This document shows, one piece after another, positions 7,267-23,258 of a DNA stretch of 64,000 nucleotides (within the stretch, counting starts at the first letter, position 1; each line of letters starts with the position of its first letter). The notes under the pieces were generated by a model that was not told where the DNA came from, ran no database searches, and saw nothing but the letters and a program-made list of their open reading frames with translations. The position numbers and the translations under genes were made by a program. This DNA comes from a virus: IMG/VR virus record IMGVR_UViG_3300045988_142892; one strand, given 5' to 3'.

Positions 7267-7466
7267 TACGGCCGTCGCCAAAATGGTAAGGCACAGGACT
7301 TTCTCAAAATCAGTTAAATGAGTTATATAATATGACGGGGTTAAGTAGTATTATATAAGTTCTGTTAGTAGGCTTCCGGTTCTATAAAACCGAGAATGTT
7401 GGTGCAAGTCCAACTTTTGAGCCCTGACTCCTGCATCTGCTGGTTCGAGTCCAGCCGGCCGTGCCA
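7267..7466 (+). tRNA. tRNA gene with about 124 nt of intervening sequence in the anticodon loop (Gln(TTG) the most likely reading)
   Basis: 5' half: acceptor acggccg, D-arm gcc-aaaatggtaa-ggc, anticodon-stem 5' cagga (7293-7297). 3' half: anticodon-stem 3' tcctg (7429-7433), variable catct, T-arm gctgg-ttcgagt-ccagc, acceptor cggccgt (perfect 7-bp pairing), G, CCA. The insert itself holds tRNA-like hairpins (gttgg-tgcaagt-ccaac; cggtt-ctataaa-aaccg). Confidence 0.55.
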
Positions 7467-7608
7467 CCAGAGTTCTGCTAAGTTATATATTTAATTAAGA
7501 ATTTGCTACTCTGAAAGAATATATAATGAATAAAAAATTGGGTCTAAATAACGCAGATAATCCGCTCTGGACCATAAATTCAATTTAAGGAGAAAAATTA
7601 TGATTTGT

Positions 7609-7718
7609 CGCACTAAAGAGCATTATGAAAATCGCATTGCGAAGTTGTATTCCCATAGTGAAGTTATGAATCAGCGCCTCATTAATAAGATGAAGCGAAA
7701 ACTCCGTAAGTTGAATTA
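7609..7718 (+). CDS. Small basic peptide (36 aa), hypothetical
   Basis: Strong RBS taaggagaaaaattatg; MICRTKEHYENRIAKLYSHSEVMNQRLINKMKRKLRKLN. Confidence 0.35.
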
Positions 7719-7728
7719 AGGAGTTTAT

Positions 7729-7800
7729 TGAGGGGTAGCATAGCGGCAAATGCGCTGGTCTCTAAAACCAGATAAGTGGGATCGACACCCACCCCCTCCG
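7729..7800 (+). tRNA. Amber suppressor tRNA (anticodon CTA, reads UAG)
   Basis: Acceptor tgagggg/cccctcc (pair 1:72 is U-C); D-arm gcat-agcggcaa-atgc; perfect anticodon stem ctggt/accag with loop ctCTAaa (anticodon 7762-7764); T-arm gtggg-atcgaca-cccac; no CCA encoded. Consistent with the many in-frame TAGs in conserved domains. Confidence 0.7.
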
Positions 7801-8034
7801 CGGTGCTAAAAACAAAACCTCCTCGTGGTAGCACTGGGTAATGCTAATTTGTTTATAAAGGTAATAAAGGCAATATGTATAAAAGTCATTGATAAGTCCT
7901 TTTATACGATAGGAAGTAGGATTAGAAGCGTCCATCTTTTAAAGAGCGAAATGCGGCGATCGGGTATTTCCTTGGTCCAGTAGACACACTATCGGAGGTT
8001 GTGGGTTAACCTAATTAAAACCCTCAAAATAAAA

Positions 8035-8397
8035 ATGTTTGATATTTATTTAAATTATTGCGAAGAAATTTTTGGTGGTTCTCATAAGTTTACCAAAAAT
8101 GGCCTTGGTTATGATGTTTTAAATATTCATAATAATCGAGATAATTTTAAAATTATACTTGCGGATAAAGTGCGGTTTGGAGAATATACTTTATTTCATC
8201 GTGCTTATGGAGCTAGACTTGATGGTTCTTATGAGTGGCATGTCCAATTAAAATCTAAATATTTAGATTTTCTAATTTATTGTGCTTTCGCGCATGATTT
8301 TAATAAATATAATAACATTCCTTATAATCGAGAAGATTATTGGCGTTTTATTAAAGATTATAAGAAATATATTTCGGAGATTAACGTGATAAGGTAG
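8035..8397 (+). CDS. Hypothetical protein; start uncertain; 3' end overlaps the tRNA-Tyr gene
   Basis: ORF MFDIYLNYCEEIFGG...; its stop codon TAG lies inside the D-loop of the tRNA-Tyr gene. Confidence 0.35.
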   Translation: MFDIYLNYCEEIFGGSHKFTKNGLGYDVLNIHNNRDNFKIILADKVRFGEYTLFHRAYGARLDGSYEWHVQLKSKYLDFLIYCAFAHDFNKYNNIPYNREDYWRFIKDYKKYISEINVIR

Positions 8398-8464
8398 ACA
8401 CCCCGGTCTGTAAAACCGGTGCGCTTAGTCGCTCGAGTGGGTTCGATTCCCTCATCTCCGACCA
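8375..8464 (+). tRNA. tRNA-Tyr(GTA), type II
   Basis: Acceptor cggagat/atctccg; anticodon arm ccggt-ctGTAaa-accgg; long variable arm tgcgcttagtcgctc; T-loop ttcgatt; CCA encoded. Confidence 0.7.
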
Positions 8465-8983
8465 AAGTATTTGGCAGTATACTTTATAGTAATCGCAAAA
8501 ACTGCTTATCGTACCTGAGTAAGTGGCAAGGTCGTAGATGGCGACGGCGTTGTTTATTTAAAACGATAGGTTTCTTTTCCTAACAGGCTGAAGAAAAGAC
8601 GTTAACCACAACGAAAGAGTGATTAAGAATAGGTAAGGAATATTTATATTAAAGGTGATTTGGCACTATTGTTAATTTTAATGTTGATCGGTGCGGAATA
8701 AGTAAGATTTCCTATTTAAATCTAACCAAATTGAATACTGAAAACAAACCGAGGAAATGCTCTTAAATGGAGTTTGATTGTTCTTTGATGGTGGAAGGAA
8801 GCGTAAGGCAACCTGCGGGTTAGCGTTTGCGGAGTAAAAGAACATGATGACAAAATTTAAGAGCATTTTTGTTTGCTTAAATAAGAGCAGTTAATGTGGC
8901 TTGACCGGCATCAAGCGCAAGGACCGAAAACCGCAATTTAAAATGCTTTTAGAAATTTTTAAGATAAAAAAGGAGGAAATTAA
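8465..8983 (+). ncRNA. ORF-free region of about 520 nt directly after the tRNA array; candidate large structured ncRNA
   Basis: No ORF of 60 aa or more on either strand, no promoter copy inside, several GC-rich imperfect inverted repeats (ggcgacggcg; gcaacctgcgggttagcgtttgcgg; cttgaccggcatcaagcgcaagg); ends at the RBS of the gene starting at 8984. Confidence 0.25.
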
Positions 8984-10506
8984 ATGTCATATTTTAATGC
9001 TAGTTTGGACTGTGAAAATGGTACAATATATTGCTCTGGATCAGTAGATCCTCCTGTCATTACATCAATAGAACTTTATATTCGTATTAAAATAAATGGT
9101 ATAGACTCTGGTTATATTTATGTTGGAAGCGGTTCAAACAGAATACGTTTTAATGAAGAGATTCCAAATTATGATCATGTTAACTTTGATAGTTATAATG
9201 ATTATGAATTAATAGTATTAGATGGTGATTTATATGAATTAGGTGCTTATACTCCTTGCACTGGTTCTTTTTATGCTTCATCATCGGGAGGAGGAGGAGG
9301 AGGCGGTGGATCGGGCGGAACTGATCCAATGTACGCTTGTTATGATGTTACAACTGGAAATTATATAAACGGTTGGACGCAAGGTAGTTTTGGTATGACC
9401 GCTCCCTCTTATGGTAGTAGTTATACTTATTTAGGATATTGCCCTGGTAATTCAGAATAGGAATGTTTAAATTATTATACTAATAATGGCACTACATGGA
9501 GTCAAGATTCTACTTATATAGTAGGAGATTGTAGTTATGTTATATTTTTTTATAGACAAAATTTATCTTATGCTTATATAACTTATTATTATAATGGAGG
9601 ATCTGGTAGTTATAATAATGGAGCTCAAAATGCTTTTTCAAGTACAACTCAACCTTGGAACATATATTTAGATACTCCTTCGCGCTCTGGATATAATTTT
9701 TTAGGATGGACAACAGACAATTCATCAGCTTATGTGAGTAGTCCTATACAAGCATATAATGGTTCAACTTATACATTATATGCTATGTGGTAGCGAATTT
9801 ATTATTATACCTATATAACCTATCACTATAATGGAGGATCTGGTAGTTATAGTGATGGATAGCAAGTAAGTTATTCAAGTGTCAATTCTAGTCGAACTAT
9901 TACTTTAGATACTCCAACAAGAGCAAATTATACTTTTTTAGGTTGGGGAACCAGTTCTTCTTCTGCTGATATTGGCACACAACTATAGGTGTCATCTACA
10001 AGCACTGTATATAAAACTTTATACGCAATTTGGCGTAGAAATACAATTATTGTAACTTATAATGCAAATGGAGGTTCTGGTGGACCCGGATCATAGACTG
10101 TTAATACCAATTCTTCTTTTAATATAAATGGATCTAATTTTCCAACAAAGTCTAATTATATTTTTAAAGGATGGTCTACATCGTCTTCAGCAAAAACTGC
10201 AACTTATAAAAAAGGAGCAACACCTTCAATTTCTACTGGTACATCTAATATAACTTATTATGCAGTTTGGTGGCCTGTATTTACTTGGAAAGATTATTCC
10301 AGAAGTGAAGCAAATACTTTCGCAGGATATATAAATACTTATCTAAGTAAATCAATCTCTTCTATTGATGACACAAATCCTCTGCGGTTAGTTATTTGGT
10401 TTAATGCAATAGCTACGGCATTAAACAATAATACTAGACTTGCATCAGGAGACGCAAGTTTTAAAGCACAATTAGATACTCTATTAACTGCATATAATAA
10501 TTATTA
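8984..10506 (+). CDS. Listeria-Bacteroides repeat (Flg_new-type) protein, probable virion or cell-surface adhesin; reads through 5 in-frame TAGs
   Basis: About four repeats of the pattern YNGGSGSY..G.Q....S......L.TP.R..Y.FLGW.T.......Y...Y.LYA.W; Gly-rich tract SSSGGGGGGGGSGG; TAGs at 9458, 9791, 9860, 9986 and 10094 all in frame; stop TAA at 10504; RBS aaaaaggaggaaattaaatg. Confidence 0.6.
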
Positions 10507-10513
10507 AAATTAA

Positions 10514-10542
10514 TTGGCCTACTGAGAATTTCAGTAGGCCAA
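10514..10542 (+). terminator. Rho-independent terminator
   Basis: ttggcctactgagaatttcagtaggccaa followed by tttttt. Confidence 0.6.
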
Positions 10543-10611
10543 TTTTTTATATTCATAAAGAATATTTTTTTATATTATTTAGAATGATGTAATAAAAGAG
10601 GAGGCAATAAG

Positions 10612-10884
10612 ATGTATACTTTAACACATCAAAATGGTAAAGTTAATTATGGATTAAAAAAATTCATAGTTGATTCTGTTGAAGATATTGAAAAAATTCC
10701 AACAATTTCATTGCTCCCTGGCAGTACTGCTTTTATTCCTAAATCATCAAAATTATATATTTATCAAGATAATAATACTTGGGTTGAACAAAAATCCAAT
10801 AGTAATAATGGTAGTAGTGGCGGAAGCTCCGAACCTTCTAATCCTGATAATACATATGTTTGGGATGGCGGTAGTATTGATTAA
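10612..10884 (+). CDS. Hypothetical protein (90 aa)
   Basis: RBS aaaagaggaggcaataagatg. Confidence 0.45.
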   Translation: MYTLTHQNGKVNYGLKKFIVDSVEDIEKIPTISLLPGSTAFIPKSSKLYIYQDNNTWVEQKSNSNNGSSGGSSEPSNPDNTYVWDGGSID

Positions 10885-21501: not shown

Positions 21502-21519
21502 AGTAAAAATACTTTACAC
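21495..21519 (+). terminator. Rho-independent terminator
   Basis: gtgtaaagtaaaaatactttacac. Confidence 0.6.
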
Positions 21520-21536
21520 CAATTTCCGCAATTTTT

Positions 21537-21565
21537 TTGACATTTTTAAAAATTTAATATATAAT
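21537..21565 (+). promoter_or_regulatory. Conserved phage promoter, sigma70-like
   Basis: ttgaca at 21537-21542, 17-nt spacer, tataat at 21560-21565. Confidence 0.55.
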
Positions 21566-21576
21566 ATATATAGAAA

Positions 21577-21726
21577 ATGAAAAAGAAAAAAAGAAAAATG
21601 CGACCACAACCACCTTGGTATTTTTATTTTGATACTGATAATTGTTATCGTTGTAAAAATAAAAATGGTTGCGGTGGTTGTAAATTTTTAAAAAGGTATA
21701 TTTATACCAAACAAAAGAAAATTTGA
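21577..21726 (+). CDS. Small Cys-rich peptide (49 aa), hypothetical
   Basis: MKKKKRKMRPQPPWYFYFDTDNCYRCKNKNGCGGCKFLKRY...; CxxC...CxxC pattern; follows a promoter copy; shorter than the track's length cut-off. Confidence 0.3.
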   Translation: MKKKKRKMRPQPPWYFYFDTDNCYRCKNKNGCGGCKFLKRYIYTKQKKI

Positions 21727-21751
21727 CATTTTATAAAAAATATTATATAAT
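21722..21751 (+). promoter_or_regulatory. Conserved phage promoter, sigma70-like
   Basis: ttgaca at 21722-21727, 18-nt spacer, tataat at 21746-21751. Confidence 0.5.
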
Positions 21752-21943
21752 ATTTATATAAAATGAAGAAAGACCTTATCAGCAAATATAAGAATAAAAT
21801 TTTTACCAAACTTTAAGGATGTTATTTGAGGTCTTGTAAATATTATTTAAAGCCCGCGAGAGAAAAAATAGACGGGCTGAGCATCAGTAATTCTGGTTGG
21901 AACTTGAAGAGGAAGTTGTTGGCTGACATTAAAGCTGATATCT

Positions 21944-22035
21944 GCGGGGGTAGCCGAATGGCACAGGCATCGGACTTAAAATCCGCCGGCGCGATCACAT
22001 CAAACTTGGGGGTTCAAATCCCCTCTCCCGCACCA
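21944..22035 (+). tRNA. tRNA-Leu(TAA), type II
   Basis: Acceptor gcggggg/ctcccgc; anticodon stem tcgga/tccgc with loop ctTAAaa; long variable arm; T-loop ttcaaat; CCA encoded. Confidence 0.65.
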
Positions 22036-22365
22036 TTAAATAATAATAGCTAACGGCAGTTGCCTCTAATGAAAATTAGATAGACGGGTCGGGGTTGACA
22101 TAGACAGGTCAACAGGTAGTACAGCAGTAGGTAACAAATCTGCAAGTCGAAATAAGTTGGGAAAACCAAATGATACGGCTTAGTCCTTCGTAAGAAGTTG
22201 AAGAGAGATTTTAGGTAAAAGATAACAACTTTTAACTGCTCTTCGTAATTGACCATGAAACCGGGTCATAGCTACCATATTATTATTTAAGTTAATCTAA
22301 AAGGAGTGAGTCCAATGGGTTCTCGAATGGCCATCTTTTAACATCTTTTAAAGGAGGTTAAAAGA
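22036..22365 (+). ncRNA. ORF-free region of about 330 nt after tRNA-Leu; candidate structured RNA
   Basis: No ORF; hairpins gttgacatagacaggtcaac and gaccatgaaaccgggtcat; ends at an RBS aaaggaggttaaaagaatg. Confidence 0.2.
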
Positions 22366-22801: not shown

Positions 22802-22877
22802 CAGGATTGGTGTTAGCGGCTAGCATTCCGGTCTTCCAAACCGGCGGGGCCAGTTCGAATCTGGTATCTTGCTCCAT
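22802..22877 (+). tRNA. tRNA-Gly(TCC)
   Basis: Acceptor gcaggat/atcttgc; anticodon arm ccggt-ctTCCaa-accgg; T-arm gccag-ttcgaat-ctggt; CCA encoded. Confidence 0.65.
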
Positions 22878-23258
22878 AGTTATTAATTTGGTCTATGATA
22901 AATCGCGATGCCTGATTAATTAACTACATAGAGCCATACAGCAAATTCTTTTTACTGGGTTTCCAGTGCTATTAACTTATTTTAAGTTTCTACTAAAAAG
23001 GATTGATGTAAAATCAAATGCTTGTAGGTCTATGAGTATGATATAATAAGTAATATAAATGGTTTGGCTCTAGAATTTAAAGCCGTTTATATGAAAATTA
23101 TATTAGAAAATAGACGATTTGCTCTCTTTGGAGGATTGTTTGAAAAAACTAAAAAATTAAGAGAGCAGGTTAGATTATAAATAACTATTAAAGACGCATC
23201 CAGCAACAGATCTTTTATGTTGGTAATGAAATTTAAAAAGAAGCGCGTCTTGTTTTAC

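Follow-up and report, generated by a model that had tools for sequence, protein, structure and literature searches.

To our knowledge, large RNAs with elaborate folds are uncommon among bacteria and phages, and only a handful of classes is known, namely GOLLD, ROOL, OLE, raiA and HEARO. Several of these classes form RNA-only cages, as recent cryo-electron microscopy revealed, and each class opened new biology. The transfer RNA (tRNA) cluster of phage T4 also encodes the stable RNAs C and D (species 1 and 2), which are not tRNAs, are about 120–140 nucleotides (nt) long and are matured by tRNA-processing enzymes from the precursor that also yields the tRNAs. GOLLD consists of 5' and 3' parts joined by a linker that sometimes holds tRNAs, forms homo-oligomers and is found in phages and prophages near tRNA islands (PMC12286853). 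ROOL is a pseudoknotted RNA of ~580 nt in phages and prophages, often near tRNA islands, that forms an RNA-only cage and has no known protein partner (PMC12286853). In this study, a 64,000-nt stretch of DNA from the IMG/VR virus record IMGVR_UViG_3300045988_142892 (the window) was analyzed around its interval 8465–8983, which an initial annotation made from the sequence alone had proposed to encode a large structured noncoding RNA next to a tRNA array. Our results showed that this interval holds one module, module B, of an RNA that is conserved in related phages and whose helices and one pseudoknot are kept by compensatory changes. Module B is probably part of a family of structured plus-strand RNAs that is released from a tRNA operon, most likely acts in trans and possibly self-associates. 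The family, which is carried by large human-gut phages that recode TAG, is apparently undescribed; its kind is familiar and its fold is new.

Relatives of the window were gathered with three anchors (a conserved ATPase, a fibre protein and a 90-amino-acid (aa) protein), by exact-pattern scans of viral, metagenome and genome collections, and by tracing homologous proteins through public assemblies. About 40 distinct sequences were obtained, every relative coming from human-gut metagenomes or viromes, and they fell into four groups. Clade W, to which the window belongs, showed identities of 88–97% over the interval. An intermediate group comprised the short contigs L037–L039. Clade L (L042, L074, L083 and L087) was about 60% identical to clade W, and clade M (L118, L119 and L125–L132) was reached by covariance models only. 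On the distant relatives, an nhmmer sequence profile found clade L only, whereas clade M and a further contig, L011, needed covariance models.

The strongest compensatory signal was found in domain 3, the long hairpin arm of module B (Table 1). Its internal loop GAUGG (8787–8791)/GGAGUA (8831–8836) is conserved, its tip carries a UNCG loop (8814–8817) and its 5' strand is exactly 33 nt long in clade W as well as in clade L. When aligned by hand, 92.7% of the cells of its 48 pairs were paired and 16 pairs were changed on both sides, compared with 1–3 in slid controls. A covariance model of this domain, R1, for which clade W sequences alone were used, found clade L with E values of 1e-8 to 1e-11, clade M with 1e-9 to 4e-13 and L011 with about 1e-7. 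On the R1 alignment, 96.9% of the cells of 44 pairs were paired and 31 pairs were double-changed; slid controls gave 6–11, and none of 500 shuffles reached any of the five measures used. Moreover, G-U cells outnumbered A-C cells by 106 to 1, and UNCG and GAAA loops were present. Thus, the molecule that folds is the plus-strand transcript.

The 5' region of module B comprises 27 pairs, of which 98.1% of the cells were paired and seven pairs were double-changed. In helix H-b, one pair is seen as C-A, U-A and C-G, and two more pairs change on both sides. The stem of hairpin H-c occurs as GUG/CAC, GAU/AUC and GAC/GUC, and in clade M as GCG/CGC and GGUG/CACC. Two alternatives in the variable region, a local GGCAC/GUGCC helix and a GAUG/CAUC pairing, were not conserved between the clades and were dropped in favor of H-c. 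The hairpin at 8506–8573 shows paired changes in L038 and L009, and a similarly sized hairpin occupies the equivalent place in clade L; this helix is the weakest-supported one. Domain 4 contains blocks shared by the three clades (UCCG.CCG, CAA.CGCA and CCG.AAA, in this order), and no consistent helix was found in it.

Between these regions lies a core that is nearly invariant. The 53-nt block 8701–8753 differs between clades W and L by four substitutions, compared with about 20 expected, and the rest of the module is ~60% identical. One of the four, U to C in CCAAAU, is offset by A to G in the loop of H-c, with which this strand forms pseudoknot 1 (PK1). The complementarity of PK1 was found in three versions: AUUUGG:CCAAAU in clade W, GUUUGG:CCAAAC in clade L and GGACAA:UUGUCC in clade M. 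The closing helix UCGG/CCGA of the core is replaced in clade M by UUGCGC/GCGUAA, with a UUAUGC/GCAUAA variant. A second pseudoknot (PK2) is proposed between the loop of the core hairpin and an upstream AAUAGG. Both of its strands are invariant in clades W and L, and both are kept in clade M despite the replaced hairpin stem. Given that invariant strands leave no room for covariation, we infer this plausible pairing from complementarity.

Module A lies upstream of tRNA-Tyr and forms a four-way junction, with a closing stem CGAUAG/CUAUCG (7907–7912/7989–7994) and hairpins at 7913–7939, 7948–7970 and 7973–7988. In a plain MAFFT alignment that was not fitted to structure, 99.5% of the cells of its 39 pairs were paired, nine pairs showed double changes and none of 500 shuffles equaled this. 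Model R2, built for module A, detected clade L at 171 bits and clade M at 78.5 bits (E = 5e-14). The second hairpin, the stem of which covaries, carries a 9-nt loop that consists of two purines, a 6-nt palindrome and a third flanking base, which is a purine in clades W and L and the intermediates and U in two clade M sequences. The palindrome is CGAUCG in clade W and the intermediates, UCGCGA in clade L, GCGCGC in L119 and GCGCGU in L118, the last being self-complementary through G-U pairs. A hexamer has no way of pairing inside a 9-nt loop, so that what is conserved is self-complementarity from one molecule to another. Self-association through this loop is a lead that the sequence offers. The dimerization initiation site of human immunodeficiency virus type 1 (HIV-1) is likewise a loop of 9 nt that has a 6-nt palindrome at its center, two 5' purines and a single 3' base, and the hexamer of subtype B is GCGCGC. 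The loop of module A shares this format, and the clade M hexamer GCGCGC is that of subtype B; the likeness is one of loop format without homology. Nothing consistent was found for pairing between modules A and B.

The two modules are arranged differently in the three clades. In clade L they adjoin in a single element of about 670 nt, which extends from the base after the suppressor tRNA (tRNA-Sup) to an intrinsic terminator, with no tRNA between A and B; its first 150 nt match 7862–8012 of the window and its last 400 nt match 8572–8960. In the window, A and B are parted by a 120-aa open reading frame (ORF), tRNA-Tyr and a short clade-specific leader. In clade M, tRNA-Ser and tRNA-Ala flank module A, and B follows 2.7 kb further, after tRNA-Gln and tRNA-Sup. 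The product of the 120-aa ORF has no Pfam or PHROG match, and only close homologs were found among 5.8 billion proteins; the ORF is absent from L009 and L116.

Similar to the window's terminator in two clade W genomes (Table 1), a terminator hairpin and U-run close module B in clades L and M. The gene at 8984–10507, which follows module B in the window, is missing entirely from these two clade W genomes (L002 and L081), and in relatives its first ~300 nt are swapped for unrelated sequence, so that at least three unrelated N-termini exist. The gene has in-frame TAG codons and no promoter of its own. Given that a terminator comes immediately after B in clades L and M as well as L002 and L081, the gene is a cassette whose insertion has separated the RNA from its terminator. 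As a later insertion, it does not have B as its leader, and its link to B is accidental. Past the terminator, a gene for a 90-aa protein (MYxLTH...DNTYxWDGG; 10612–10884 in the window and 8090–8359 in L042) is a stable neighbor in all clades. Genes for fibre-like proteins with an Mtd_N domain come after it, and it is a useful synteny anchor.

Table 1. Positions of the modules, their parts and neighboring features in the window. Loops are in square brackets; HDV, hepatitis delta virus.
Feature	Position	Strand	Sequence or structure	Basis or remark
Closest promoter copy 5' of the interval	6677–6705	+	TTGATT-17-TATAAT	Alignment of five promoter copies
Suppressor tRNA (tRNA-Sup)	7729–7801	+	Anticodon CUA	ARAGORN; Rfam tRNA, 52.3 bits; organization of L042
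Candidate HDV-like (theta) self-cleaving ribozyme	7802–7856	+		RF02682, 27.7 bits (gathering score 44)
Module A	7857–8012	+	Four-way junction	Covariation; model R2
9-nt hairpin loop	7955–7963	+	GGCGAUCGG	Hairpin 2 of module A; candidate kissing-loop site
Optional 120-aa ORF	8035–8397	+		Between A and B; overlaps first 23 nt of tRNA-Tyr
tRNA-Tyr	8375–8464	+	Anticodon GUA	ARAGORN and Rfam; between A and B in clade W
Clade-specific leader hairpin	8466–8487	+	AAAGUAU[UUGGCAGU]AUACUUU	U-A to C-G in L008, L009, L038, L086 and L092
Long hairpin, 5' edge of module B	8506–8573	+	CUUAUCGU...ACGAUAGG	Same fold in clade W variants
Helix H-a	8572–8595	+	UUCUUU (8572–8577)/GAAGAA (8590–8595), inner CCU/AGG	Two of six pairs double-changed between clades
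Helix H-b	8606–8622	+	CCAC/GUGA, conserved ACGAAA loop	Covariation
PK2, proposed 5' strand	8628–8633	+	AAUAGG	Complementary to core hairpin loop CCUAUU (8711–8716)
Hairpin H-c	8655–8666	+	GUG[AUUUGG]CAC	Loop is 5' strand of PK1; stem covaries
Core domain	8688–8753	+	Closing helix UCGG/CCGA; AGUA/UACU; hairpin AGAUUU[CCUAUUU]AAAUCU (8705–8723)	Contains 3' strand of PK1, CCAAAU (8726–8731)
Domain 3, long hairpin arm	8744–8875	+	P0 (CAAAC/GUUUG), P1, P2, internal loop, tip hairpin	
Domain 4, 3' part of module B	8876–8965	+		Blocks conserved across clades W, L and M
Intrinsic terminator	10515–10548	+	TTGGCCTACTGA-loop-TCAGTAGGCCAA and T-run	Directly 3' of module B in L002 and L081

The initial annotation had likened the RNA to the ROOL, GOLLD and HEARO-like classes; it is a member of none of these, as no family of Rfam 15 matched it even at E ≤ 10. 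At gathering scores, the window matched neither GOLLD nor ROOL. GOLLD (RF01998) gave no match at E ≤ 10 in the interval or the contiguous L042 element, at E ≤ 2 in the window or at E ≤ 1 in the clade M locus, and the ROOL model (RF03087) found none in these four. HEARO, the omega-RNA of IscB and other transposon guide RNAs had no Rfam match either, and the adjoining ORFs encode the 120-aa protein without a family and a protein with Flg_new repeats, neither of them an IscB/TnpB-type nuclease. For housekeeping RNAs (RNase P RNA, transfer-messenger RNA (tmRNA), signal recognition particle RNA and 6S RNA), ARAGORN found no tmRNA and Rfam none of them, the contiguous clade L element included. Models of self-cleaving ribozymes (HDV-like/theta, twister, hammerhead and others) did not match within 8465–8983, nor did those of cis-regulatory leaders (riboswitches, T-boxes and ribosomal-protein leaders), and the gene downstream of the RNA varies or is missing. 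A likeness to RAGATH-33 at 8877–8968 (E = 0.67) was absent in clade L and was taken as chance.

Like GOLLD, the present RNA is large, elaborately folded and next to tRNA islands of a phage, with tRNA-Sup upstream and tRNA-Tyr between its two modules, and the palindromic loop could mediate self-association as in the GOLLD oligomers. This setting is insufficient for membership, and GOLLD is >800 nt long compared with about 600 nt here, with no match of the Rfam model in any clade. Moreover, with 2.7 kb and ORFs between them in clade M, the modules would be separate molecules there, unlike GOLLD. Similar to ROOL, the RNA is pseudoknotted and has a comparable size and genomic setting. However, the ROOL model did not match, there is no evidence of common motifs and the present RNA is far narrower in host range and distribution, being confined to recoded phages of the human gut. 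With T4 RNAs C and D, it shares placement in a tRNA cluster, but it is several times larger and pseudoknotted. Theta ribozymes share both the type of phage and the neighborhood with this RNA; they are about 55–75 nt long and are an element separate from this RNA, the interval itself having no HDV-like match. The full-text literature searched held no description of the RNA, which large automated catalogs of human-microbiome motifs could hold unnamed.

The interval was bounded correctly, as it runs exactly from the end of tRNA-Tyr (8464) to the ATG at 8984. Its equation with the element was right in that it holds module B (~8505–8965, about 400–460 nt), but this is one of two modules, and the first ~40 nt are a clade-specific leader. 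The statement that it lacks any ORF of at least 60 aa is true of the plus strand under the standard, TAG-sense and TGA-sense codes; the minus strand has a 62-aa ORF (8678–8866). With TAG as a stop, this ORF is full length in one relative only, four other clade W relatives have no ORF at the site and the clade L sequence there is unrelated; it was ruled out as a gene for not being conserved. An alternative code was rejected as well, since ORFs >100 aa arise only when TAA is read as sense, which is implausible. A small peptide in the invariant core would have no start codon, and in clade L its frame contains a stop. A template repeat of a diversity-generating retroelement, prompted by the downstream Mtd_N fibre genes, was rejected as no repeat of at least 30 nt from the interval occurs elsewhere in the window; a reverse-transcriptase gene was not searched for.

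Several compositional statements about the interval were borne out. The promoter motif TTGAY-17-TATAAT is absent from it, with merely a partial AATATTTATAT at 8639. Its patchy GC-richness amounts to a modest rise (0.32–0.45, compared with about 0.22–0.32 in nearby coding sequence), and its inverted repeats include a perfect 14-bp pair (8755–8768/8855–8868). Near-total coding elsewhere was overstated, as ORF-free stretches are also present at 7019–7728 (710 nt), 21502–21825, 22054–22365 and 22877–23258. The first of these, between tRNA-Val and tRNA-Sup of the same operon, exceeds the flagged interval in length; it has no Rfam match, and L009 has no match to 7282–7571. The virion role given to the product of gene 8984–10507 is the initial annotation's call; the product matches Flg_new repeats only, and the gene is absent from some relatives. 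The single-sequence folding energy of the interval is mildly unusual compared with shuffles (z = -2.0 for the plus and -2.8 for the minus strand). Thus partly confirmed, these observations would not have been decisive by themselves. The interpretation as a large structured RNA is supported by the conservation and the compensatory changes in related phages, and no ORF spans the interval.

Modules A and B would be transcribed from a tRNA promoter as parts of the phage tRNA operon. The promoter copy at 6677–6705 is the likely start, from which tRNA-Val, tRNA-Sup, module A, the ORF, tRNA-Tyr and module B would be read in this order. Between 6705 and 10550, a simple promoter scan gave only weak consensus matches, and the promoter motif of the phage did not turn up. 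Given the tRNAs that flank A and B, and the HDV-like ribozyme that adjoins them in places, tRNA-processing nucleases would cut them out as discrete stable RNAs, and the HDV-like candidate at 7802–7856 may contribute to their release. In the ancestral layout, the terminator of the operon would end module B. The proposed architecture of the latter is a three-helix 5' region, the near-invariant core as a hub of two pseudoknots, the ~130-nt arm and a 3' region. As folded molecules, the RNAs would act in trans and not as a leader for the downstream gene. The mechanism that we favor is self-association into a larger RNA assembly via the loop of module A, as in GOLLD, ROOL and OLE. Roles in tRNA handling, translation or recoding are guesses from context. 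More speculatively, the RNAs might make up a bipartite 'ornate' particle, self-assembling through the A loop and the B core and acting on translation at the switch to TAG-recoded late genes, for instance if they held or presented the suppressor tRNA, or engaged ribosomes or a release factor, or they might represent a new ribozyme class; we hold this possibility only tentatively.

A cis-acting role has to be weighed against trans action. Module B could be the leader of a late or virion operon, that is, a long 5' untranslated region (UTR) steering read-through by antitermination or attenuation, translation or stability from 8984 onward. In the window and most clade W relatives, it indeed runs into the Shine-Dalgarno sequence and ATG of gene 8984–10507 without a terminator or promoter, and homology among relatives ends exactly at this ATG. 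However, an intrinsic terminator stands right after B in clades L and M and in L002 and L081, the adjacent gene is absent or has at least three unrelated N-termini, module A of clade M lies between two tRNAs at 2.7 kb from B, and no riboswitch, T-box or leader family matched. Terminators and a changeable neighbor make the leader unlikely as the main function, although it may apply secondarily in this genome. The near-invariant, pseudoknotted core is ribozyme-like, and the RNA is always among tRNAs, so a catalytic RNA, self-cleaving or tRNA-processing, that matures the phage tRNA array was also considered, in a genome that holds an HDV-like candidate (7802–7856), a twister-P1-like element (2292–2342) and RAGATH-33 (22049–22177). 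RNase P, group I and II introns and self-cleaving classes gave no match at E ≤ 10, and no conserved context of a cleavage site was identified. Moreover, the relatives L106–L112, which share the 90-aa gene with a tRNA-Gln about 260 nt 5' of it, carry tRNAs in the 4 kb upstream but have no match to R1 or R2 there. A new ribozyme appears slightly less likely than a leader.

Least probable of all is that the interval acts as DNA (a replication origin, packaging site or recombination hotspot) or is a non-functional spacer that merely reflects recent ancestry. Within clade W it is no more conserved than its flanks (88%, compared with about 89%, in L008), it lies at a mosaic boundary, and as DNA its hairpins are strand-symmetric, the reverse strand scoring about 40 bits. 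Yet the 106:1 excess of G-U over A-C means that the pairing works on the plus-strand transcript only, the pseudoknot and many helices stay complementary at ~60% identity or after full replacement, the core has four changes where about 20 were expected, and no switch in GC skew occurs at the interval. The G-U bias and the pseudoknot thus make a DNA-level role very unlikely.

Several points weigh against a released, trans-acting RNA family as described here. The transcript, its ends and its stability are predictions from sequence. Most clade W genomes, including the window, have no terminator between B and gene 8984–10507, so B may double as the 5' UTR of this gene there. The alignments of domain 3 were made by hand or fitted to a model, and the model gives the opposite strand of the arm a score of about 40 bits as well; thus, the match of L011 (41.6 bits) is moderately secure only. 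PK2 and the core helices, being invariant, are beyond covariation testing, domain 4 and the variable region yielded no resolved structure, and oligomerization rests on one loop. Finally, the family is narrow, with all of its sequences in three to four clades from one habitat, and much of its covariation stems from a few deep branches rather than from many independent events.

The window is a segment of a large phage genome, contigs of relatives being 160–200 kb long, and its plus strand carries every gene. It contains 22 tRNA genes, 21 found by ARAGORN and one extra Rfam call (1215–1290). Many of its genes have in-frame TAG, and reading TAG as sense raises the summed length of ORFs of at least 100 aa from 15,742 to 19,342 aa. 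Its sigma-70-type promoter copies form two related, strongly conserved sets with TTGAC/T, 17 nt and TATAAT, followed by ATATATAGAAAG or ATATTTATATAAG; the copies are at ~362, ~3885, ~5915, 6677–6705 and ~20325 and at 21750, 23913, 38165, 40183, 56806 and 59399. The theta candidate begins at the first base past tRNA-Sup, immediately 5' of module A, and is separate from the RNA family. Its E value was 0.0076 in a 1.1-kb search and 0.44 in the whole window. Theta ribozymes of gut phages are associated with tRNAs in the same position (PMC10879173). The candidate has no counterpart in L042 of clade L, and a look-alike, read by eye, follows tRNA-Sup and precedes module B in clade M (L119, ~3413–3462). 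Twister-P1 was matched below threshold at 2292–2342 (+) of the window (41.1 bits, E = 1.4e-5) and at 339–398 of L119 (43.1 bits), where it ends 3 nt 5' of tRNA-Ser. A RAGATH-33 RNA at full score (126.8 bits) is located at 22049–22177 (+), 13 nt past tRNA-Leu (21944–22035) of a second tRNA cluster.

Among cultured phages, blastn of the interval against 50,697 GenBank phage records returned nothing, and megablast of the first 25 kb against GenBank phage records returned tRNA genes only. L011 comes from a more distant phage, whose ATPase is 52% identical, and holds a partial copy at its contig end (14558–14753), where a domain-3-like hairpin lies 52 nt past tRNA-Tyr with no core region 5' of it; the contig stops at this point, and none of the other contigs in IMG/VR matched. 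Presence of the RNA was set against TAG recoding by an ORF-length ratio, a crude measure that proved too noisy on short loci to show a link, and some clearly recoded relatives had no match within 10 kb on either side of their fibre-gene match. For hosts, one scan of genome contigs for the invariant core gave a phage contig in a 'Mollicutes' metagenome-assembled genome and two chance 20-mers. A clade W phage genome, L116 (CAMELE010000001.1, 163,874 bp), is deposited in such an assembly of an 'uncultured Mollicutes bacterium', which is either a mis-binning or a hint at the host.

As a candidate for a new class of large phage RNA, this RNA has clear covariation support, a natural split into two modules and an invariant pseudoknotted core, and its dimerization-type loop is a direct experimental handle. 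The locus also illustrates phage tRNA operons as landing pads for ribozymes, ORFs and noncoding RNAs. Moreover, its adjacency to a suppressor tRNA in gut phages that recode a stop codon could connect the biology of tRNAs and code switching with large phage RNAs, a question that also stands for GOLLD and ROOL.

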